A DNA stretch of 64,000 nucleotides, from positions 122,170 through 186,169 of the forward strand of contig JANQPL010000014.1 of the NCBI GenBank assembly GCA_028289425.1. The letters run 5' to 3'. Below, piece after piece: positions 29,128 to 38,143 of this stretch (position 1 is its first letter; every line of letters begins with the position of its first letter). This DNA comes from Alphaproteobacteria bacterium. GTDB lineage: Bacteria > Pseudomonadota > Alphaproteobacteria > JANQMY01. The position numbers were made by a program, and so were the translations under genes. A model generated the notes under the pieces. That model searched no databases. It saw only the letters and a list, made by a program, of their open reading frames with translations, and was not told the DNA's origin.

Positions 29128-31218
29128 ATGGAACGCAAACTGACAACAATCGTCGCCATGGATGTTGTCGGGTACAGCAGCCTCATGGAACGCGACGAGG
29201 TAAGCACTTTCGCCGACCTGAAAACGCTGCGCACGTCTATTGTCGATCCCGCCGTCAATAATAACGGCGGTCGCGTCGTCAAGCTGATGGGGGATGGCAC
29301 ACTGATCGACTTCCCCAGCGTCGTCAGCGCTCTTGAATGCACGATCGCCATTCAAAAAGAGCTTGCCGCAGCTCAAAACGCCGCTGCCGATGGACGGGCC
29401 ATGCGATTGCGTATCGGCATCCACTTAGGCGATGTGATGGTTGAAGGCGATGACATCTATGGAGACGGTGTAAATGTCGCCGCACGCTTGGAGACCGTCG
29501 CAGATCCGGGAAGCATTGTGATCTCCAAACAAGTTCACGATCAGGTTGAGGGGAAGGTTTCTGTCTCCTTCACACCATTGGGCGGCCAATCGGTGAAAAA
29601 CATCCGCCGCCCGATCGAAGCCTATAGTGTTCAATGGCGCGAAGAAGAACCCAACACTGAGAATTTGCGGTTCGGCGATTTCGAACTGGACCTTGCCCGC
29701 TTTGAGCTCCGCAAAAGCGGTGTGCATGTGCCGATGGAACCGCAAGCTTTCGACCTGCTGGTTTATTTGGCGCGGCATGCGGATCGAACGGTTACAAAGT
29801 CGGAGTTGTTTGAGAACATTTGGGACGGCCGGATCGTTTCTGAAACGGCGCTGAGCAGCCAGATCAAAACTGTCCGCAAAGCCGTCGGCGATGACGGCAA
29901 TGCCCAGCACACCATACGTACCTTACATGGGCGTGGGTTCCGGTTTGTCGCAGAGCTTCAATCTGCCCCCATTTCGGCACCAACCGCTCCGGAACCCGAG
30001 GAAGCACCAACCATTCCAGCCATGGCGGCGAAACCGTCGGTCGCGGTACTTCCGTTCGAAAACCTCAATCGCGATCCCGACGAAGACTATTTCGCGGACG
30101 GCATTTCCGAAGACATCACCACGGCGCTTTCAAAAAACCGTTGGCTCACGGTCATTGCGCGCAATCCAGCCTTTGCCTTTCGAAACTCACCGGACAGCAT
30201 ACGGACGATCGGCAAGAAGCTGCACGCCAATTACTTGGTGACCGGCAGCGTTCGAAAGGCCGGGTCCCGCGCGCGAATCTCGGTGCAAGTTGTAGACGCG
30301 GAAACGGAACATAGCGTCTGGTCGGAACGGTTTGACCGCGACGTGGTGGATATTTTCGATCTTCAGGACGAGATCACCGAGCTGGTGACAGCGCGCATCG
30401 AATCCGAGTTGGGTCTTTCGGAACAACGCAAGGCAGAACGGTGCCCACGCAAGAATCTCGGCGCTTGGGATCTTTATCAATTGGGTGTGGCGGAATTCTA
30501 CAAATTCACCCCCGAGGCCAATGAGCGATGCCAGGAATTGTTGCGCAGATCCATCGAGGTCGATCCGGAGTTTGCCGGTGCCTATGCGCGTCTGGCTTAT
30601 GCCATCGTATTGAGCATGGTTTACTTCGATGCGGATCACAGCAGCGCGCGCATGGATGACGCGCTGAAAATTGCAAAGAAGGCGATCGAGTTGGATGACC
30701 AAGACGCCAACGCCTATTTCACCATTGGACGCGTTTATCTGGCGCGCCGGGAATATGACCTGGCGATCGATTCCCTGGAACACGCGGTCGAGTTAAACCC
30801 GAGCTTGGCGCAGACTTATTGCGGCCTCGGCGACTCGCTGGCCTATGAAGGGCGGCTTGATGAAGCCATCGAACAATTCGAAATTGCCATTCGCTTAAGC
30901 CCCCACGACCCCTTCCGTTGGGCGTTCTTTTCCTACCGGTCACTCGCCCATTTGTTTCGCGGCGAATACGGCGAGGCTGTGACGTGGGCCCGTAAGGCCA
31001 CGCAAATCCCCAACGCACAGTATTGGGCGAGCGCCCATTTGGTGGCGGCGCTCGGGCACTTAGGCGACACAAATCAAATCGCGGCCGCCCGTGCCGAGCT
31101 GTTGCGCACGAAGCCGGAATTTACACAGGCCTTCGCGCGCAAGCACTTGTTTTATCTGAAACAAGAAAACCAGATGGAAACCTATATCGACGGCCTTAAG
31201 AAGGCAGGGGTCGAATAG
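29128..31218 (+). CDS. Multidomain signalling protein: class III adenylate/guanylate cyclase domain, OmpR/PhoB-type winged-helix DNA-binding domain, and TPR repeats.
   Basis: The N-terminal cyclase domain carries the motifs TIVAMDVVGYS, KLMGDG and RIGIHLGDV...GDGVNVAARLE. A central trans_reg_C-like domain follows (FDLLVYLARHADRTVTKSELFENIW...GFRF). The C-terminal 350 aa are TPR-like helical repeats. Confidence 0.75.
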   Translation: MERKLTTIVAMDVVGYSSLMERDEVSTFADLKTLRTSIVDPAVNNNGGRVVKLMGDGTLIDFPSVVSALECTIAIQKELAAAQNAAADGRAMRLRIGIHLGDVMVEGDDIYGDGVNVAARLETVADPGSIVISKQVHDQVEGKVSVSFTPLGGQSVKNIRRPIEAYSVQWREEEPNTENLRFGDFELDLARFELRKSGVHVPMEPQAFDLLVYLARHADRTVTKSELFENIWDGRIVSETALSSQIKTVRKAVGDDGNAQHTIRTLHGRGFRFVAELQSAPISAPTAPEPEEAPTIPAMAAKPSVAVLPFENLNRDPDEDYFADGISEDITTALSKNRWLTVIARNPAFAFRNSPDSIRTIGKKLHANYLVTGSVRKAGSRARISVQVVDAETEHSVWSERFDRDVVDIFDLQDEITELVTARIESELGLSEQRKAERCPRKNLGAWDLYQLGVAEFYKFTPEANERCQELLRRSIEVDPEFAGAYARLAYAIVLSMVYFDADHSSARMDDALKIAKKAIELDDQDANAYFTIGRVYLARREYDLAIDSLEHAVELNPSLAQTYCGLGDSLAYEGRLDEAIEQFEIAIRLSPHDPFRWAFFSYRSLAHLFRGEYGEAVTWARKATQIPNAQYWASAHLVAALGHLGDTNQIAAARAELLRTKPEFTQAFARKHLFYLKQENQMETYIDGLKKAGVE

Positions 31219-34538: not shown

Positions 34539-35030
34539 ATGGCGAACATGAGAAATGTGACCATCAGAGCCGCAACGCTCGACGACAAAGACGCATCGTT
34601 GCGGCTCTACGAGCAAATAGATGAGCTGCACCGTCAAGCGCGGCCGGATATCTTTCGCGTCCCCGATGGCGCACGGCGGTCAGAGACATTCCTCAAAAAG
34701 CGCATTGAGAATGACGGGTGTGCCATGTATGTGGCGCAGGCCGGGGAGACGGTCGTCGGACTTGCAACCATTATTCTGAGGCGTACACGGGAAGATTCCA
34801 TCCTGCGGAAGCAGTACTATGCGGAGGTCGACGAGATTGTCGTCGATACCGCTCACCAGCAGCGCGGCACGGGAACGCTTCTGCTGGAGGCGTGTTTGGA
34901 CTGGGCGCGCCGGCAGCCGGATGTGACCGCCGTGACGCTCGGTGTTCACGAATTTAACGCAAACGCCCGGCGGTTCTATGAGAGCAAAGGCTTCAAAACC
35001 TTCTACCGGCAGATGGAGATTGAGCTTTAG
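34539..35030 (+). CDS. GNAT family N-acetyltransferase.
   Basis: Acetyl-CoA-binding motif QQRGTGTLLLEA. 163 aa. Confidence 0.75.
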   Translation: MANMRNVTIRAATLDDKDASLRLYEQIDELHRQARPDIFRVPDGARRSETFLKKRIENDGCAMYVAQAGETVVGLATIILRRTREDSILRKQYYAEVDEIVVDTAHQQRGTGTLLLEACLDWARRQPDVTAVTLGVHEFNANARRFYESKGFKTFYRQMEIEL

Positions 35031-35085
35031 GGCTCAATTTTCGATACGAAATGGAAGGCGTTAGACACATCTTTGTCTTATCGAG

Positions 35086-35574
35086 TTAGCGCCTTCTCTT
35101 TCGCTTCTTACGGTCAGCCTTGTCTTTTTCAACGGGATAAACTTGATGCTCTGGGTCCCACCACAACAATCTTAAGATGTTTTCATGCTGCGGCCACCAA
35201 AACGCCCAAGCGCGATTTTTGCCAGTAAGTCGCAGTGAAATCAGCTCATCGAATTGGTCCATGCCCAATTTCTGCAACCTAACTTGAGCACTGCTATGTA
35301 GTTTATTGACCCCAATTCTGTGAGATCCTCCAGATTTTATTTGATCCCAGTTCTTACCTTCAAATTCGCGGAGCTTGTTGATTACTTCTAAGGCCTTGCC
35401 ACTCTCGGCAAGTTGGGACCAGCCAAAAGGACCTTCGCTGTCAGTGTTTTCAAACTTCCAGGCGAGCATCATATCGCTTTTTTTAGACGGAGCAGCGACT
35501 TTTGGGAGGCTCTTTGTATCGCGAATCCTAAATTCCGATTTTGGCCGGCGGGCTTTCCCCTTGCTTCTTTTCAC
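35086..35574 (-). CDS. Putative toxin partner of the Panacea antitoxin; 162 aa with K/R-rich termini and no recognisable domain.
   Basis: Its GTG start overlaps the antitoxin TAG stop by 1 nt (TAGTG on the minus strand). Both the N- and C-termini are basic. It lies in a low-GC islet. In-frame ATG codons also occur at 35472 and 35469. Confidence 0.5.
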   Translation of the reverse strand: MKRSKGKARRPKSEFRIRDTKSLPKVAAPSKKSDMMLAWKFENTDSEGPFGWSQLAESGKALEVINKLREFEGKNWDQIKSGGSHRIGVNKLHSSAQVRLQKLGMDQFDELISLRLTGKNRAWAFWWPQHENILRLLWWDPEHQVYPVEKDKADRKKRKRRR

Positions 35575-36005
35575 TAGAGCAAGCCGCTATAGTACTCGGC
35601 CATTGCGGAGTGAGAAATTTCTCTGTTTGAACGCGCGTCTTCCGGCAAACCCTCTCGCGCTTCCTTCCAGGGCCGTTCTCGATGAGTTAGCGCACTGAGC
35701 TGCGCTGCGCTCTTCTTCCCGTAGTATTCTACAACGACCTCAATCGTCTCTTTTTCTTCGTCTGATAGGTTACGAATGTCCCCGCTTGGAGGAGTGGAGA
35801 TATTGAACCGCCCTTTGTGCCAATCATATAGCTCGCGTACAACCGGCCCATTCGCCCACGCAAGAACCCTCTCTTTGAAAATCGGTTTCTCATCCCAAAC
35901 CAAAGACCAGGCTTGTGAGTAGTAGACGAGCTTTTGAAGCTTCATTGCACTCATCTTGCCGTGAAGCTTCACGATGTATCGAGCTACATCGAATACGTTG
36001 GACAT
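35574..36005 (-). CDS. Panacea-domain (DUF4065) SocA-like antitoxin.
   Basis: The N-terminal pattern MSNVFDVARYIVKLHG..MSAMKLQKLVYYSQAWSLVW...AWANGPVV matches the DUF4065 / SocA consensus. The start is set at the ATG at 36005. The ORF track begins at 36047. Confidence 0.75.
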   Translation of the reverse strand: MSNVFDVARYIVKLHGKMSAMKLQKLVYYSQAWSLVWDEKPIFKERVLAWANGPVVRELYDWHKGRFNISTPPSGDIRNLSDEEKETIEVVVEYYGKKSAAQLSALTHRERPWKEAREGLPEDARSNREISHSAMAEYYSGLL

Positions 36006-36038
36006 GGCGCGAATTCCTCGTACGAACCAACATAGCAA

Positions 36039-36056
36039 TTGATTCATTCAAATCAA
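36039..36056. promoter_or_regulatory. Palindromic candidate operator TTGATTCATTCAAATCAA, just upstream of the antitoxin start.
   Basis: TTGATT / AATCAA inverted repeat 34 bp upstream of the antitoxin ATG on the minus strand, within an AT-rich promoter region. Confidence 0.4.
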
Positions 36057-36276
36057 TAGGTTGCATATTCGTGAGTCTAAACAATAAGTTACTTACAAAG
36101 CCTCACCAACGAAACCGTGTTATTTCAATCTTGGAAAACACAAAGATCGCGACTTCGGCAAGCCATAGAGTTAGCTGGTAGCAGAGATACCTATTCGTGT
36201 ATAATTCTTAATCCGAGGGGAGGCCCCGGTACGCATGAGAGATTCCGATGGCCTCGACAGATTTCCGCCCACTCAT

Positions 36277-36307
36277 GGCCCGCAATAGCGGGCCATTCGT
36301 GTTTTTG
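36277..36307 (+). terminator. Rho-independent-terminator-like hairpin GGCCCGCAATAGCGGGCC followed by ATTCGTGTTTTT.
   Basis: A 7-bp GC stem followed by a T-run on the plus strand. It sits in the 550-bp leader between the TA islet and the Rieske oxygenase gene. Confidence 0.4.
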
Positions 36308-36395
36308 GACCCTGCCGACAGGGGGGCCAGATCCCGAAATCGGGATGAACCCCATGCGCCCATCTTTTCAATAGATATTGAAGGTGCCTCGCCGG

Positions 36396-36460
36396 CCCGC
36401 TCCCCCGTCCCAACCACCCGCCAGGGTACCGTATTCGGGCGGTTGGGACGGGAGAGCGGG
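36396..36460. repeat. C-rich hairpin element, copy 2: CCCGCTCCCCCGTCCCAACC / GGTTGGGACGGGAGAGCGGG.
   Basis: 20-bp arms with one mismatch. The loop (ACCCGCCAGGGTACC...) is related to the loop of copy 1 at 22541..22613. Confidence 0.6.
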
Positions 36461-36488
36461 TGGCCTGGTCATCCGTCAAACAAAGCCG

Positions 36489-36502
36489 TTGATCTAGATC
36501 AA
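36489..36502. promoter_or_regulatory. Perfect 14-bp palindrome TTGATCTAGATCAA, about 90 bp upstream of the Rieske oxygenase start.
   Basis: Exact dyad symmetry. A related TTGATC-N10-GATCAA lies at 6188..6209, also about 90 bp upstream of an oxidoreductase gene. Confidence 0.35.
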
Positions 36503-36592
36503 TCGCAAATTACAACGCGCGTGGCAAAATTCTGCTCATGGACCCGGCCGCGGACCCAAGCGGCGGGCGTCTCTCACGGGAGGAGAGTGCAC

Positions 36593-38143
36593 ATGACAGA
36601 GACAACCACCGGAACCAACCGTTCCGCCGGCATCACCTATCTGGAACTGCTCGACCAAGACAGCCATCCGGTCCGGCCGATTTTGCGGGTCGACAGCCCC
36701 ATGGAACCGGGGCCCACCAAGGTGCCCGTTGAGCGCTATTTCTCGAAAGAGTTCCACGATCTGGAAGTGGAGAAGGTGTGGAAGCGGGTGTGGCAGATGG
36801 CCTGCCATGAAGACGATATTCCCGACGTGGGGGACTATCACGTCTACGACATCGCCAATCTGTCCTTCCTCATTGTACGGACGGCTGAGGACGAGTTTAA
36901 GGCCTATTGGAATGCCTGCCTGCACCGTGGGCGGCAATTGAAGGAAAAAAGCGGCAAGAAGGCGTTTGCGTTCCGCTGCCCGTTCCATGGCTGGGCGTGG
37001 AATTTGGACGGGTCGATCATGCAGATCCCCTGTCAATGGGATTTCCCCACCGTCGATCCGAAAGAGTACAGCCTGCCGGAAGTGCAGCTTGACCGGTGGG
37101 GCGGCTTCATCTTCATCAACCCGGATGAAAACAACACCCAGTCGCTCGCCGATTATCTGGGCGATCTGTCGGACCAATTCACGCTGCTGCCCTATGAGAA
37201 GCGGTGCAAGGTGGCCCATGTGGCGAAGGTGTTGCGGTGCAATTGGAAAGTGGCGCAAGAAGCCTTTAGCGAAGCCTATCACGTGATCGCCACCCACCCG
37301 ACGATCCTGGAAACCATCGGCGATGCCAACACCAAATATGACGTGTTCGGAAATTATTCCCGGGCCATGTCGCCCAACTTCACGCCGAGCCCGCATTTGG
37401 CCAATATGCCTCATTTCGAGCATTTGGACGATGCGAAGCTGTACACGAAACTGCGCCATCCGCTCTCCGGCCACGTATATGAGCGCGGCGAAGACGGGCT
37501 AGTGCATGTGACCAACGGCAAAGGCACGGTCAGCAAGTTTACAGCCGGCGGCGATTGGGTCGAAGGCGAGTTGATCAACGCCGACCCGCATATGTGCGAT
37601 TGGATCGGCGGCATGCAACTGCCCGACGCGGATGAGGTGCCCTCCCCCGACCCCTATGACGTGCCCGAAGGCACCAATGTGCGGGCCGCCATGGCGGAAG
37701 GGCCGCGCAAGGCGCTACGGGACGTGTTGGGCGACAGGGTGGAAGAGATCAGCGATGCGGAATTGCTCGATTCGATCTATTACACCGTGTTCCCGAACTT
37801 TCACCCCTGGGGTTCGTTCAATCAAATCGTTTACCGATTCCGTCCGTATGGGGATGATCCGGATATGTGCATTCACGAATGCATGTATTTCGCACCCGCC
37901 CCCAAGGGCGACAAACGGCCGCCGGCGGCGCCCATCCACTGGCTGGGTGTAGACGATGATTGGTGCGAAGCACCGGAGCTCGGCATGTTGGCCAAAGTGT
38001 TCAATCAGGATGTGGTGAATATGCCCTATGTTCAGAAGGGCCTCAAAACCATGAAACAGCCCTATGTGATCTTCGCGGATTACGGCGAAACGAAGCCGCG
38101 TCATTTCCACAAATTGCTGAACGAGTGGATCGACAAACCTTAG
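36593..38143 (+). CDS. Rieske [2Fe-2S] non-heme iron oxygenase, alpha subunit (aromatic-ring-hydroxylating type).
   Basis: Rieske motif CLHRG...CPFHGW and a mononuclear iron site E..AYHVIATH. A GGAGGAGAG RBS precedes the ATG at 36593. The ORF track begins at 36248. Confidence 0.8.
   Translation: MTETTTGTNRSAGITYLELLDQDSHPVRPILRVDSPMEPGPTKVPVERYFSKEFHDLEVEKVWKRVWQMACHEDDIPDVGDYHVYDIANLSFLIVRTAEDEFKAYWNACLHRGRQLKEKSGKKAFAFRCPFHGWAWNLDGSIMQIPCQWDFPTVDPKEYSLPEVQLDRWGGFIFINPDENNTQSLADYLGDLSDQFTLLPYEKRCKVAHVAKVLRCNWKVAQEAFSEAYHVIATHPTILETIGDANTKYDVFGNYSRAMSPNFTPSPHLANMPHFEHLDDAKLYTKLRHPLSGHVYERGEDGLVHVTNGKGTVSKFTAGGDWVEGELINADPHMCDWIGGMQLPDADEVPSPDPYDVPEGTNVRAAMAEGPRKALRDVLGDRVEEISDAELLDSIYYTVFPNFHPWGSFNQIVYRFRPYGDDPDMCIHECMYFAPAPKGDKRPPAAPIHWLGVDDDWCEAPELGMLAKVFNQDVVNMPYVQKGLKTMKQPYVIFADYGETKPRHFHKLLNEWIDKP

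Follow-up and report, generated by a model that had tools for sequence, protein, structure and literature searches.

A PanA–PanT module of the T1 family with a predicted RelE-like toxin in a low-GC islet of an alphaproteobacterial genome

The closest described relatives of the gene pair analysed here come from a survey of Panacea/DUF4065 gene neighbourhoods, in which 88 toxin clusters were distinguished (Kurata et al., 2022, PNAS 119:e2102212119, PMC8832971). The first-numbered of them, and the largest partner family catalogued for Panacea antitoxins, is T1: the accessible part of Dataset S1 carries its label, pT1, 217 times, its proteins are labelled "mRNase" in SI Table S1, and the reachable dataset rows give it as "NoTest", with neither an HHpred nor a CDD annotation (PMC8832971). 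The complexes of Panacea antitoxins (PanA) with their toxins (PanT) were stable, a property regarded there as typical of the direct neutralisation in type II systems (PMC8832971); such neutralisation by stand-alone Panacea antitoxins is known from two validated systems, and the Panacea domain is considered to be probably a sensor and not a transcriptional autoregulator (Ernits et al., 2023, PMC10440598). The subject of this work is a panA–panT pair in a stretch of 64,000 nucleotides (nt), hereafter the window, from the forward strand of contig JANQPL010000014.1 (positions 122,170–186,169, assembly GCA_028289425.1) of an Alphaproteobacteria bacterium, where a previous sequence-only reading had proposed an undescribed toxin–antitoxin (TA) pair.

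The identity of the pair was established by comparison with the catalogued T1 loci. The examples given for this cluster are C. cadaveris (WP_074844973.1/WP_074844970.1), L. gresilensis (WP_131783195.1/WP_131783196.1) and phage Emek (YP_006560565.1/YP_006560566.1) (PMC8832971), and the accessible rows of Dataset S1 include Desulfovibrio (now Solidesulfovibrio) alcoholivorans DSM 5433, with a gap of −1 nt between the two genes, and Legionella gresilensis Greoux 11D13, with a gap of +4 (PMC8832971). The family scan retrieved loci in both S. alcoholivorans DSM 5433 (locus L034) and L. gresilensis Greoux 11D13 (L055), with measured gaps of −1 and +4. In the Emek pair (orf149/orf161, L087, JQ806763 14764–15637) the 62-nt overlap was the same as in the accessible part of Dataset S1; its PanA matched the PanA profile (E 4e-34) and its PanT, YP_006560566.1, matched the toxin profile over positions 15–140 (E 1.5e-11). 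Because two listed T1 loci were retrieved with identical gaps and the Emek member matches the profile, the PanT family is T1, and the window pair belongs to it with near certainty. The locus is thus a new member of an already catalogued family, so that neither the proposal of an undescribed pair nor that of a new toxin family for the partner could be upheld. The predicted fold of the partner, RelE/ParE-like, is not a new one either. No later paper characterising T1 was found in the literature searched.

The first gene encodes a Panacea protein, as had been read from the sequence: PanA matched Pfam SocA_Panacea PF13274 with E 3.5e-21 and 76.6 bits (cut-off 25.7) over residues 23–114, and phrog_1281 with E 3.5e-41, while the score against the NCBIfam SocA equivalog NF047745 (E 6.7e-11, 42.2 bits) stayed below the cut-off of 190. 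The start codon is preceded at 9 nt by a GAGGA Shine-Dalgarno sequence (36019–36015), and the N-terminus, MSNVFDVA, aligns at position 1–2 of a profile made from about 80 partner PanAs. PanA carries neither an HTH nor a PAD1 or ZBD domain at its N-terminus; the Panacea domain stands alone, and the protein has no DNA-binding domain. On the minus strand the gene opens with the ATG at 36005 and closes with a TAG stop at 35576–35574, and one base of this stop is also part of the GTG start of panT (TAGTG), giving a gap of −1 nt. The partner gene is read as co-transcribed with panA. The overlap, seen already in the sequence-only reading, indicates that panA and panT are translationally coupled, and genes of 143 and 162 amino acids (aa) with identical boundaries were called on an independent Logan metagenome contig.

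The second protein, PanT, had no match in Pfam, NCBIfam or PADLOC at E ≤ 0.1 and only weakly matched PHROG 8366, a family of function unknown (E 6.5e-8). From the structure model, residues 1–36 would form a basic and disordered extension, residues from about 37 to 150 a RelE/YoeB-like core, and residues 151–162 a basic tail (KKRKRRR), in agreement with the basic termini pointed out before. In a conservation set of 170 relatives with a mean identity of about 35%, R121, W138, D140 and H143 were invariant, and H85, R99, A96, E72 and W39 were conserved at 95–98%, with H85 and R99 at 97–98%. The window PanT was 32–60% identical to any relative found; its best match in the species-representative set, from which the window's own species is absent, reached 48%. 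Most family members end in ...PSxKKHT, and a C-terminal KDKADRKKRKRRR tail (residues 148–162, window 35086–35130) was confined to a small subclade including the window PanT and relatives P0002–P0008, P0022, P0023 and P0025. An insertion, WWPQHEN (residues 125–131, between the last two strands), was present only in the window PanT, P0002–P0004 and P0023.

The fold was modelled with AlphaFold2 from an alignment of 21 sequences. The mean predicted local distance difference test (pLDDT) value was 81.8, with 87–94 across residues 41–140 and low confidence in the first 36 or so residues and in the basic C-terminal tail. The core of the model is built from an N-terminal β-strand, from helices and from an antiparallel sheet of three strands, the arrangement that defines the RelE/ParE fold. 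YoeB, HigB and YafQ took the top Foldseek ranks, the best match having a probability of 0.99 and a target template modelling (TM) score of 0.63, although with weak E-values for these three (0.04 and above); a Foldseek search against viral structures gave nothing useful. In the structure comparison RelE, YoeB, YafQ and HigB all outscored every ParE. The catalytic residues of the RNase branch of this fold are E46, R65, H83 and Y84 in YoeB and R61, R81 and Y87 in RelE, and ParE is devoid of them. In the PanT model H85, R99, R121, D140 and H143 appear to sit in secondary-structure elements equivalent to those carrying these catalytic residues, with R121 at the predicted place of YoeB R65 in the second sheet strand and H143 at that of YoeB H83 in the C-terminal tail past the last strand. 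The best local hhalign path paired SLRLTGKNR with SRRITEEHR of YoeB (R121 with R65) and with KLRSSGYRL of RelE, and was suggestive but not significant. According to the model, PanT has the microbial RNase fold of the RelE/YoeB/YafQ/HigB type, to which a conserved N-terminal tail is added that is basic, disordered and about 35 residues long. The earlier statement that the protein carries no assignable toxin family holds at the level of sequence motifs and fails at the level of the fold.

The family proved to be large. A word-indexed homologue search gave 21 relatives of PanT, and an apparent rarity of the family was rejected as an artefact of the word index, since the profile built from these 21 sequences recovered 2,663 proteins at E ≤ 1e-3 (1,974 at E ≤ 1e-10) in an exhaustive search of 1.84 billion cluster representatives. 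The 2,663 are clusters at 50% identity and thus a lower bound on the T1 family; nearly all matches were 140–170 aa long and were aligned end-to-end including the basic N-terminus. With a pattern scan that covered one genome for each species, 253 loci were located across many phyla, among them Pseudomonadota, Chloroflexota, Cyanobacteriota, Acidobacteriota, Planctomycetota, Verrucomicrobiota, Chlamydiota, Nitrospinota, Poribacteria and one metagenome-assembled genome (MAG) of Heimdallarchaeota. A tblastn search against phages gave one weak match only.

The linkage of the two genes was analysed in 80 of the 253 loci, from species-representative genomes of more than 15 phyla. In 77 of them a PanA gene was directly upstream of the toxin gene on the same strand, which bears out the expectation that the partner is kept together with PanA in relatives; in the 68 pairs whose starts could be placed with confidence, gaps between −20 and +8 nt were the commonest. 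The distances within PanA and PanT were correlated (Mantel r 0.66, p 0.001), so the partners co-evolve, PanA being the more conserved of the two (mean identity 58% vs 38%). The linkage of the pair is strict. Its neighbours differed in nearly every genome: among 148 of them 147 Pfam families were counted, none present in more than three loci, which is typical of a mobile TA cassette and marks the pair as an autonomous unit of two genes. The idea of a third conserved gene or of a defence-island context was rejected, the neighbours being essentially all different. A few of the neighbours in relatives belong to insertion sequence (IS), restriction-modification, BREX, mad or AbiEii-like types.

Several loci departed from the common arrangement. 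In L005 (3649–5321) and L035 (2731–4423) a three-gene variant was observed, in which PanA is divergent and about 800 nt upstream of the T1 toxin, while a protein of 156–159 aa with a coiled-coil-like N-terminal region and the end ...GVYRL is encoded directly before the toxin on the same strand; in L005 the variant is adjoined by an IS1595 transposase. This protein might serve as another antitoxin or regulator, in which case partners would be swapped within T1. Orphan T1 toxin genes with intact conserved residues occurred in L037 (1665–2021) and L041 (3896–4348), with no PanA detectable in the locus stretches examined. Many of the closest genomic relatives were MAGs (L008, L011, L013–L015, L018, L026, L033, L058, L075 and L080) of Poribacteria, Arenicellales, Ca. 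Foliamicus and Ca. Porisulfidus. These lineages are common in marine sponge microbiomes, which hints at the habitat of the window's organism.

The window locus itself carries a foreign composition. The GC content of 47.5% at 35040–36260 compares with a window mean of 57.2% (standard deviation 2.3%, 1.2-kb windows); only two of the 1256 sliding 1.2-kb windows were this low, both overlapping the panAT locus, which is therefore the minimum of the 64 kb; the sequence-only reading had noticed a value below that of the flanking DNA. The GC content at third codon positions of the pair (0.50–0.58) is likewise below the 0.70–0.76 of the neighbouring GNAT, dehydrogenase and Rieske oxygenase genes. The panAT locus is a genuine PanA–PanT module of two genes that was acquired by horizontal transfer, and its flanks are metabolic and regulatory: GNAT, DapB-like dehydrogenase, Rieske oxygenase, short-chain dehydrogenase/reductase, pyridoxal phosphate enzyme and amidohydrolase. 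The open reading frames (ORFs) of at least 180 aa scanned within about 10 kb on each side contained neither an integrase nor a transposase domain, which agrees with the earlier observation for the adjacent DNA, and the borders of the islet had no tRNA, no Rfam element and no flanking direct repeats beyond chance length. The coordinates of the locus are collected in Table 1.

Table 1. Features of the panAT locus and its immediate neighbours, in window coordinates
Feature	Coordinates	Strand	Basis or remark
Low-GC islet holding just panA and panT	35031..36250		GC content, GC content at third codon positions
panA, 143 aa	35574..36005	minus	PF13274 match, GAGGA before ATG
panT (T1 family), putative toxin, 162 aa	35086..35574	minus	ORF from GTG, family profile
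panAT upstream region, 245 nt, 43% GC, presumed promoter and 5' leader	36006..36250	minus	holds inverted repeat
Imperfect hairpin, 17-nt arms, 82% complementary, 23-nt loop	35047..35103	minus	overlaps panT stop codon
GNAT acetyltransferase gene, convergent to panT	34539..35030	plus	low-coordinate neighbour of islet
Rieske oxygenase gene, divergent from panA	ORF 36248..38143	plus	high-coordinate neighbour of islet

An Rfam scan of the 245 nt upstream of panA had no match, and a scan with a sigma-70-like consensus found no promoter there, the lone match falling within panT. The inverted repeat ATTGATT-N6-AATCAAT at 36038–36057 includes the palindrome TTGATTCATTCAAATCAA (36039–36056, 34–51 nt upstream of the panA start), which had been interpreted as a sign of autoregulation. 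The palindrome is present; it is, however, of little weight, because an equal-sized inverted repeat arises in 13% of shuffles of the 245-nt region. In relatives, inverted repeats were found in 11 of 79 upstream regions against 5.5 expected, a mild excess to which related loci contributed three of the 11, and no common motif was evident among them. The palindrome was therefore rejected as an operator, being compatible with chance and without a common motif upstream of relatives, and autoregulation is unsupported also in view of the missing DNA-binding domain of PanA and of the sensory role favoured in the literature (PMC10440598). The hairpin between the convergent panT and GNAT genes is possibly a weak terminator; the terminator scan did not call it.

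Two further observations concern the surroundings. A strong terminator-like hairpin at 36275–36306 on the plus strand (9-bp stem with 7 GC pairs, followed by TCGTGTTTTT) lies at the high-coordinate edge of the islet and falls inside the mechanically listed 631-aa ORF of the Rieske oxygenase gene, the true start of which is probably well downstream, since its Rieske and ring-hydroxylase domains do not start before residue 182 or so. Farther away, at 29128–31218 on the plus strand, a 696-aa protein combining an adenylate/guanylate cyclase, a Trans_reg_C (OmpR-type) DNA-binding domain and TPR repeats is encoded, which is unrelated to panAT.

Taken as a whole, a horizontally acquired, autonomous T1 PanA–PanT module, whose RelE-fold RNase effector is directly neutralised by PanA, is the reading we favour, with a probability slightly better than even; for the RNase mechanism of PanT on its own the chances are about balanced. 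In this mechanism PanT would be an endoribonuclease, probably associated with the ribosome as RelE and YoeB are, that would arrest translation by means of a catalytic site probably made up of H85, R99, R121, D140 and H143. The stand-alone Panacea protein would bind PanT directly and hold it inactive, i.e., a type II neutralisation, and PanT would be set free on loss of PanA or when PanA senses a trigger. The window PanT may be toxic, and the module might act in addiction, stabilisation or phage defence.

A number of results weigh against this interpretation. On the side of the fold, the family profile aligned by hhalign with provisional single sequences of E. coli YoeB, RelE and YafQ at probabilities below 1%; Pfam at E ≤ 1 had no match for 121 family members; phmmer and hmmsearch against PDB, with profiles of 21 and 121 sequences, returned chance matches only; and PanT matched none of the curated sequence models of RelE/ParE, YoeB, YafQ or HigB in Pfam and NCBIfam. 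Position 146 is Y or C, so that the aromatic residue corresponding to YoeB Y84 and RelE Y87 is not conserved. On the side of function, the C. cadaveris T1 protein was toxic in E. coli and its own PanA failed to neutralise it, while the T1 proteins of E. coli MOD1 and phage Emek were not toxic, the antitoxin result being not applicable (PMC8832971). With two of the three non-toxic and the third un-neutralised, no T1 pair falls under the definition of a TA system. Lack of toxicity on expression alone, which the sequence-only reading had named as a refuting outcome, applies to two distant T1 members and not to the third. In the Emek PanT, however, H143 is replaced by F and R121 by A; this loss may be the reason for its inertness, and the negative result on Salmonella phage vB_SemP_Emek may not apply to members like the window PanT.

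The same assay results take another meaning if the pair acts in phage defence by abortive infection, which we regard as a possible, though not a probable, explanation. PanT would then be kept in a stable non-toxic complex and PanA, as a sensor, would free or activate the RNase only on infection; this differs from the favoured reading in role and regulation and not in effector chemistry, and over-expression assays could accordingly read "not toxic" or "not neutralised", as was the case for two of the three tested T1 proteins and for the remaining one, respectively (PMC8832971). The sensory role of Panacea favoured by Ernits et al. (2023, PMC10440598) fits this scheme, as does the occurrence of T1 members in temperate phages such as Emek. 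Defence genes were found next to some of the pairs, namely BREX BrxL/PglZ beside L002 and, as immediate neighbours, mad3 in three loci and type I restriction-modification specificity subunits, AbiEii-like AAA_21 and Schlafen/AlbA_2 in two loci each. Of the 148 immediate neighbours, however, only few are defence genes and most are housekeeping genes, and the flanks in the window are metabolic. Moreover, no PADLOC model matches PanA or PanT, and the literature searched holds no phage data on any T1 pair. The non-toxicity could also mean that the RelE fold was exapted to a non-lethal role, such as RNA or ribosome binding or regulation, with PanA as a partner or chaperone and the pair persisting as a selfish or neutral mobile cassette. 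Besides the inert E. coli MOD1 and Emek proteins (PMC8832971), the persistence of the fold in the Emek PanT without H143 and R121 and the orphan copies without PanA (L037, L041) speak for such a role; we hold it to be improbable, given the invariance of R121, D140 and H143 in the window PanT and its 170 relatives, the toxicity of the C. cadaveris member (PMC8832971), and the near-obligate linkage with an antitoxin family in overlapping or near-abutting frames, which is the signature of a toxic partner.

Two other explanations concern the target of the toxin and the mode of its neutralisation. The RelE fold might poison DNA gyrase in the manner of ParE instead of cutting RNA, which is very unlikely: every ParE scored below RelE, YoeB, YafQ and HigB, the invariant His, Arg and Asp lie in the sheet and the C-terminal tail as in the RNase branch, Pfam ParE_toxin did not match, and Kurata et al. 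labelled T1 as mRNase (PMC8832971). The Panacea domain that PanA has in common with SocA, together with the weak match to the NCBIfam SocA model, would allow PanA to act as a proteolytic adaptor taking the toxin to ClpXP, as in type VI systems. This is extremely improbable with a score so far under the equivalog cut-off, a partner other than SocB (cluster T10), and PanA–PanT complexes of the stable kind that characterises type II (PMC8832971). In our view unlikely on balance is a reading in which the T1 PanT stands apart from the classical ribosome-dependent mRNases as an enzymatic branch of its own within the RelE fold, marked by a particular His/Arg/Arg/Asp/His site and a conserved N-terminal tail of basic character. 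It could then differ from those mRNases in its target, which might be one site in a tRNA or rRNA, or in its activation, which might have to wait until PanA senses a phage-derived trigger. If true, such a branch would explain why T1, with the 217 rows seen in the accessible dataset, failed the standard toxicity and neutralisation assays.

For the window, the main result is the correct annotation of a mobile PanA–PanT(T1) cassette between metabolic genes. T1 is large, spanning no fewer than 2,663 clusters (50% identity) across bacterial phyla and some phages, and it is without a Pfam, NCBIfam or PADLOC model or a validated activity. The window PanT would be a better representative of it than the tested enteric and phage members, because the full conserved site is kept, and a member with an intact site and a set of candidate catalytic residues offers a concrete way to ask if T1 is a true toxin, and of which kind.

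The pair can finally be compared with the known systems. With other T1 systems it has in common the order of a stand-alone Panacea antitoxin gene followed by a toxin of about 140–160 aa, with an overlap or a gap of few nt; it differs from them by the additional C-terminal tail and the insertion of its subclade, and from the tested enteric and phage members by having kept R121 and H143, which the latter have lost. The Caulobacter type VI TA system SocAB, in which SocA is a proteolytic adaptor delivering SocB to ClpXP, resembles the pair in the Panacea domain of its antitoxin, while SocB is unrelated to PanT. The pair is not a member of SocAB, as PanA misses the SocA equivalog cut-off and its partner belongs to T1 rather than to T10, the SocB cluster (PMC8832971). 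With the ribosome-dependent mRNA interferases RelE, YoeB, YafQ and HigB (2khe, 2a6q, 7v6w, 4q2u, 6kml) PanT has in common the predicted fold and order of secondary-structure elements, the basic and His residues on the sheet and in the C-terminal tail, and a gene located downstream of, and overlapping, the antitoxin gene. In contrast to them, it has about 60–70 more residues, additional helices and an N-terminal extension that is conserved and basic, has a candidate residue set of His/Arg/Arg/Asp/His, deduced from conservation, in place of the canonical sets, lacks detectable similarity of sequence profiles, and is paired with Panacea instead of RelB, YefM, DinJ or HigA. RelE/ParE-like toxins are, in the accessible part of the survey, also recorded in the PanT clusters T14 (HigB-2, HHpred 99.7%), T28 (YoeB/ParE, 89%), T59 (ParE_toxin, CDD) and T76 (PMC8832971). 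These form homology clusters separate from T1, but they join a Panacea antitoxin with a RelE/ParE-fold toxin as the window pair does, so that a Panacea protein together with a RelE-fold toxin is an established combination.

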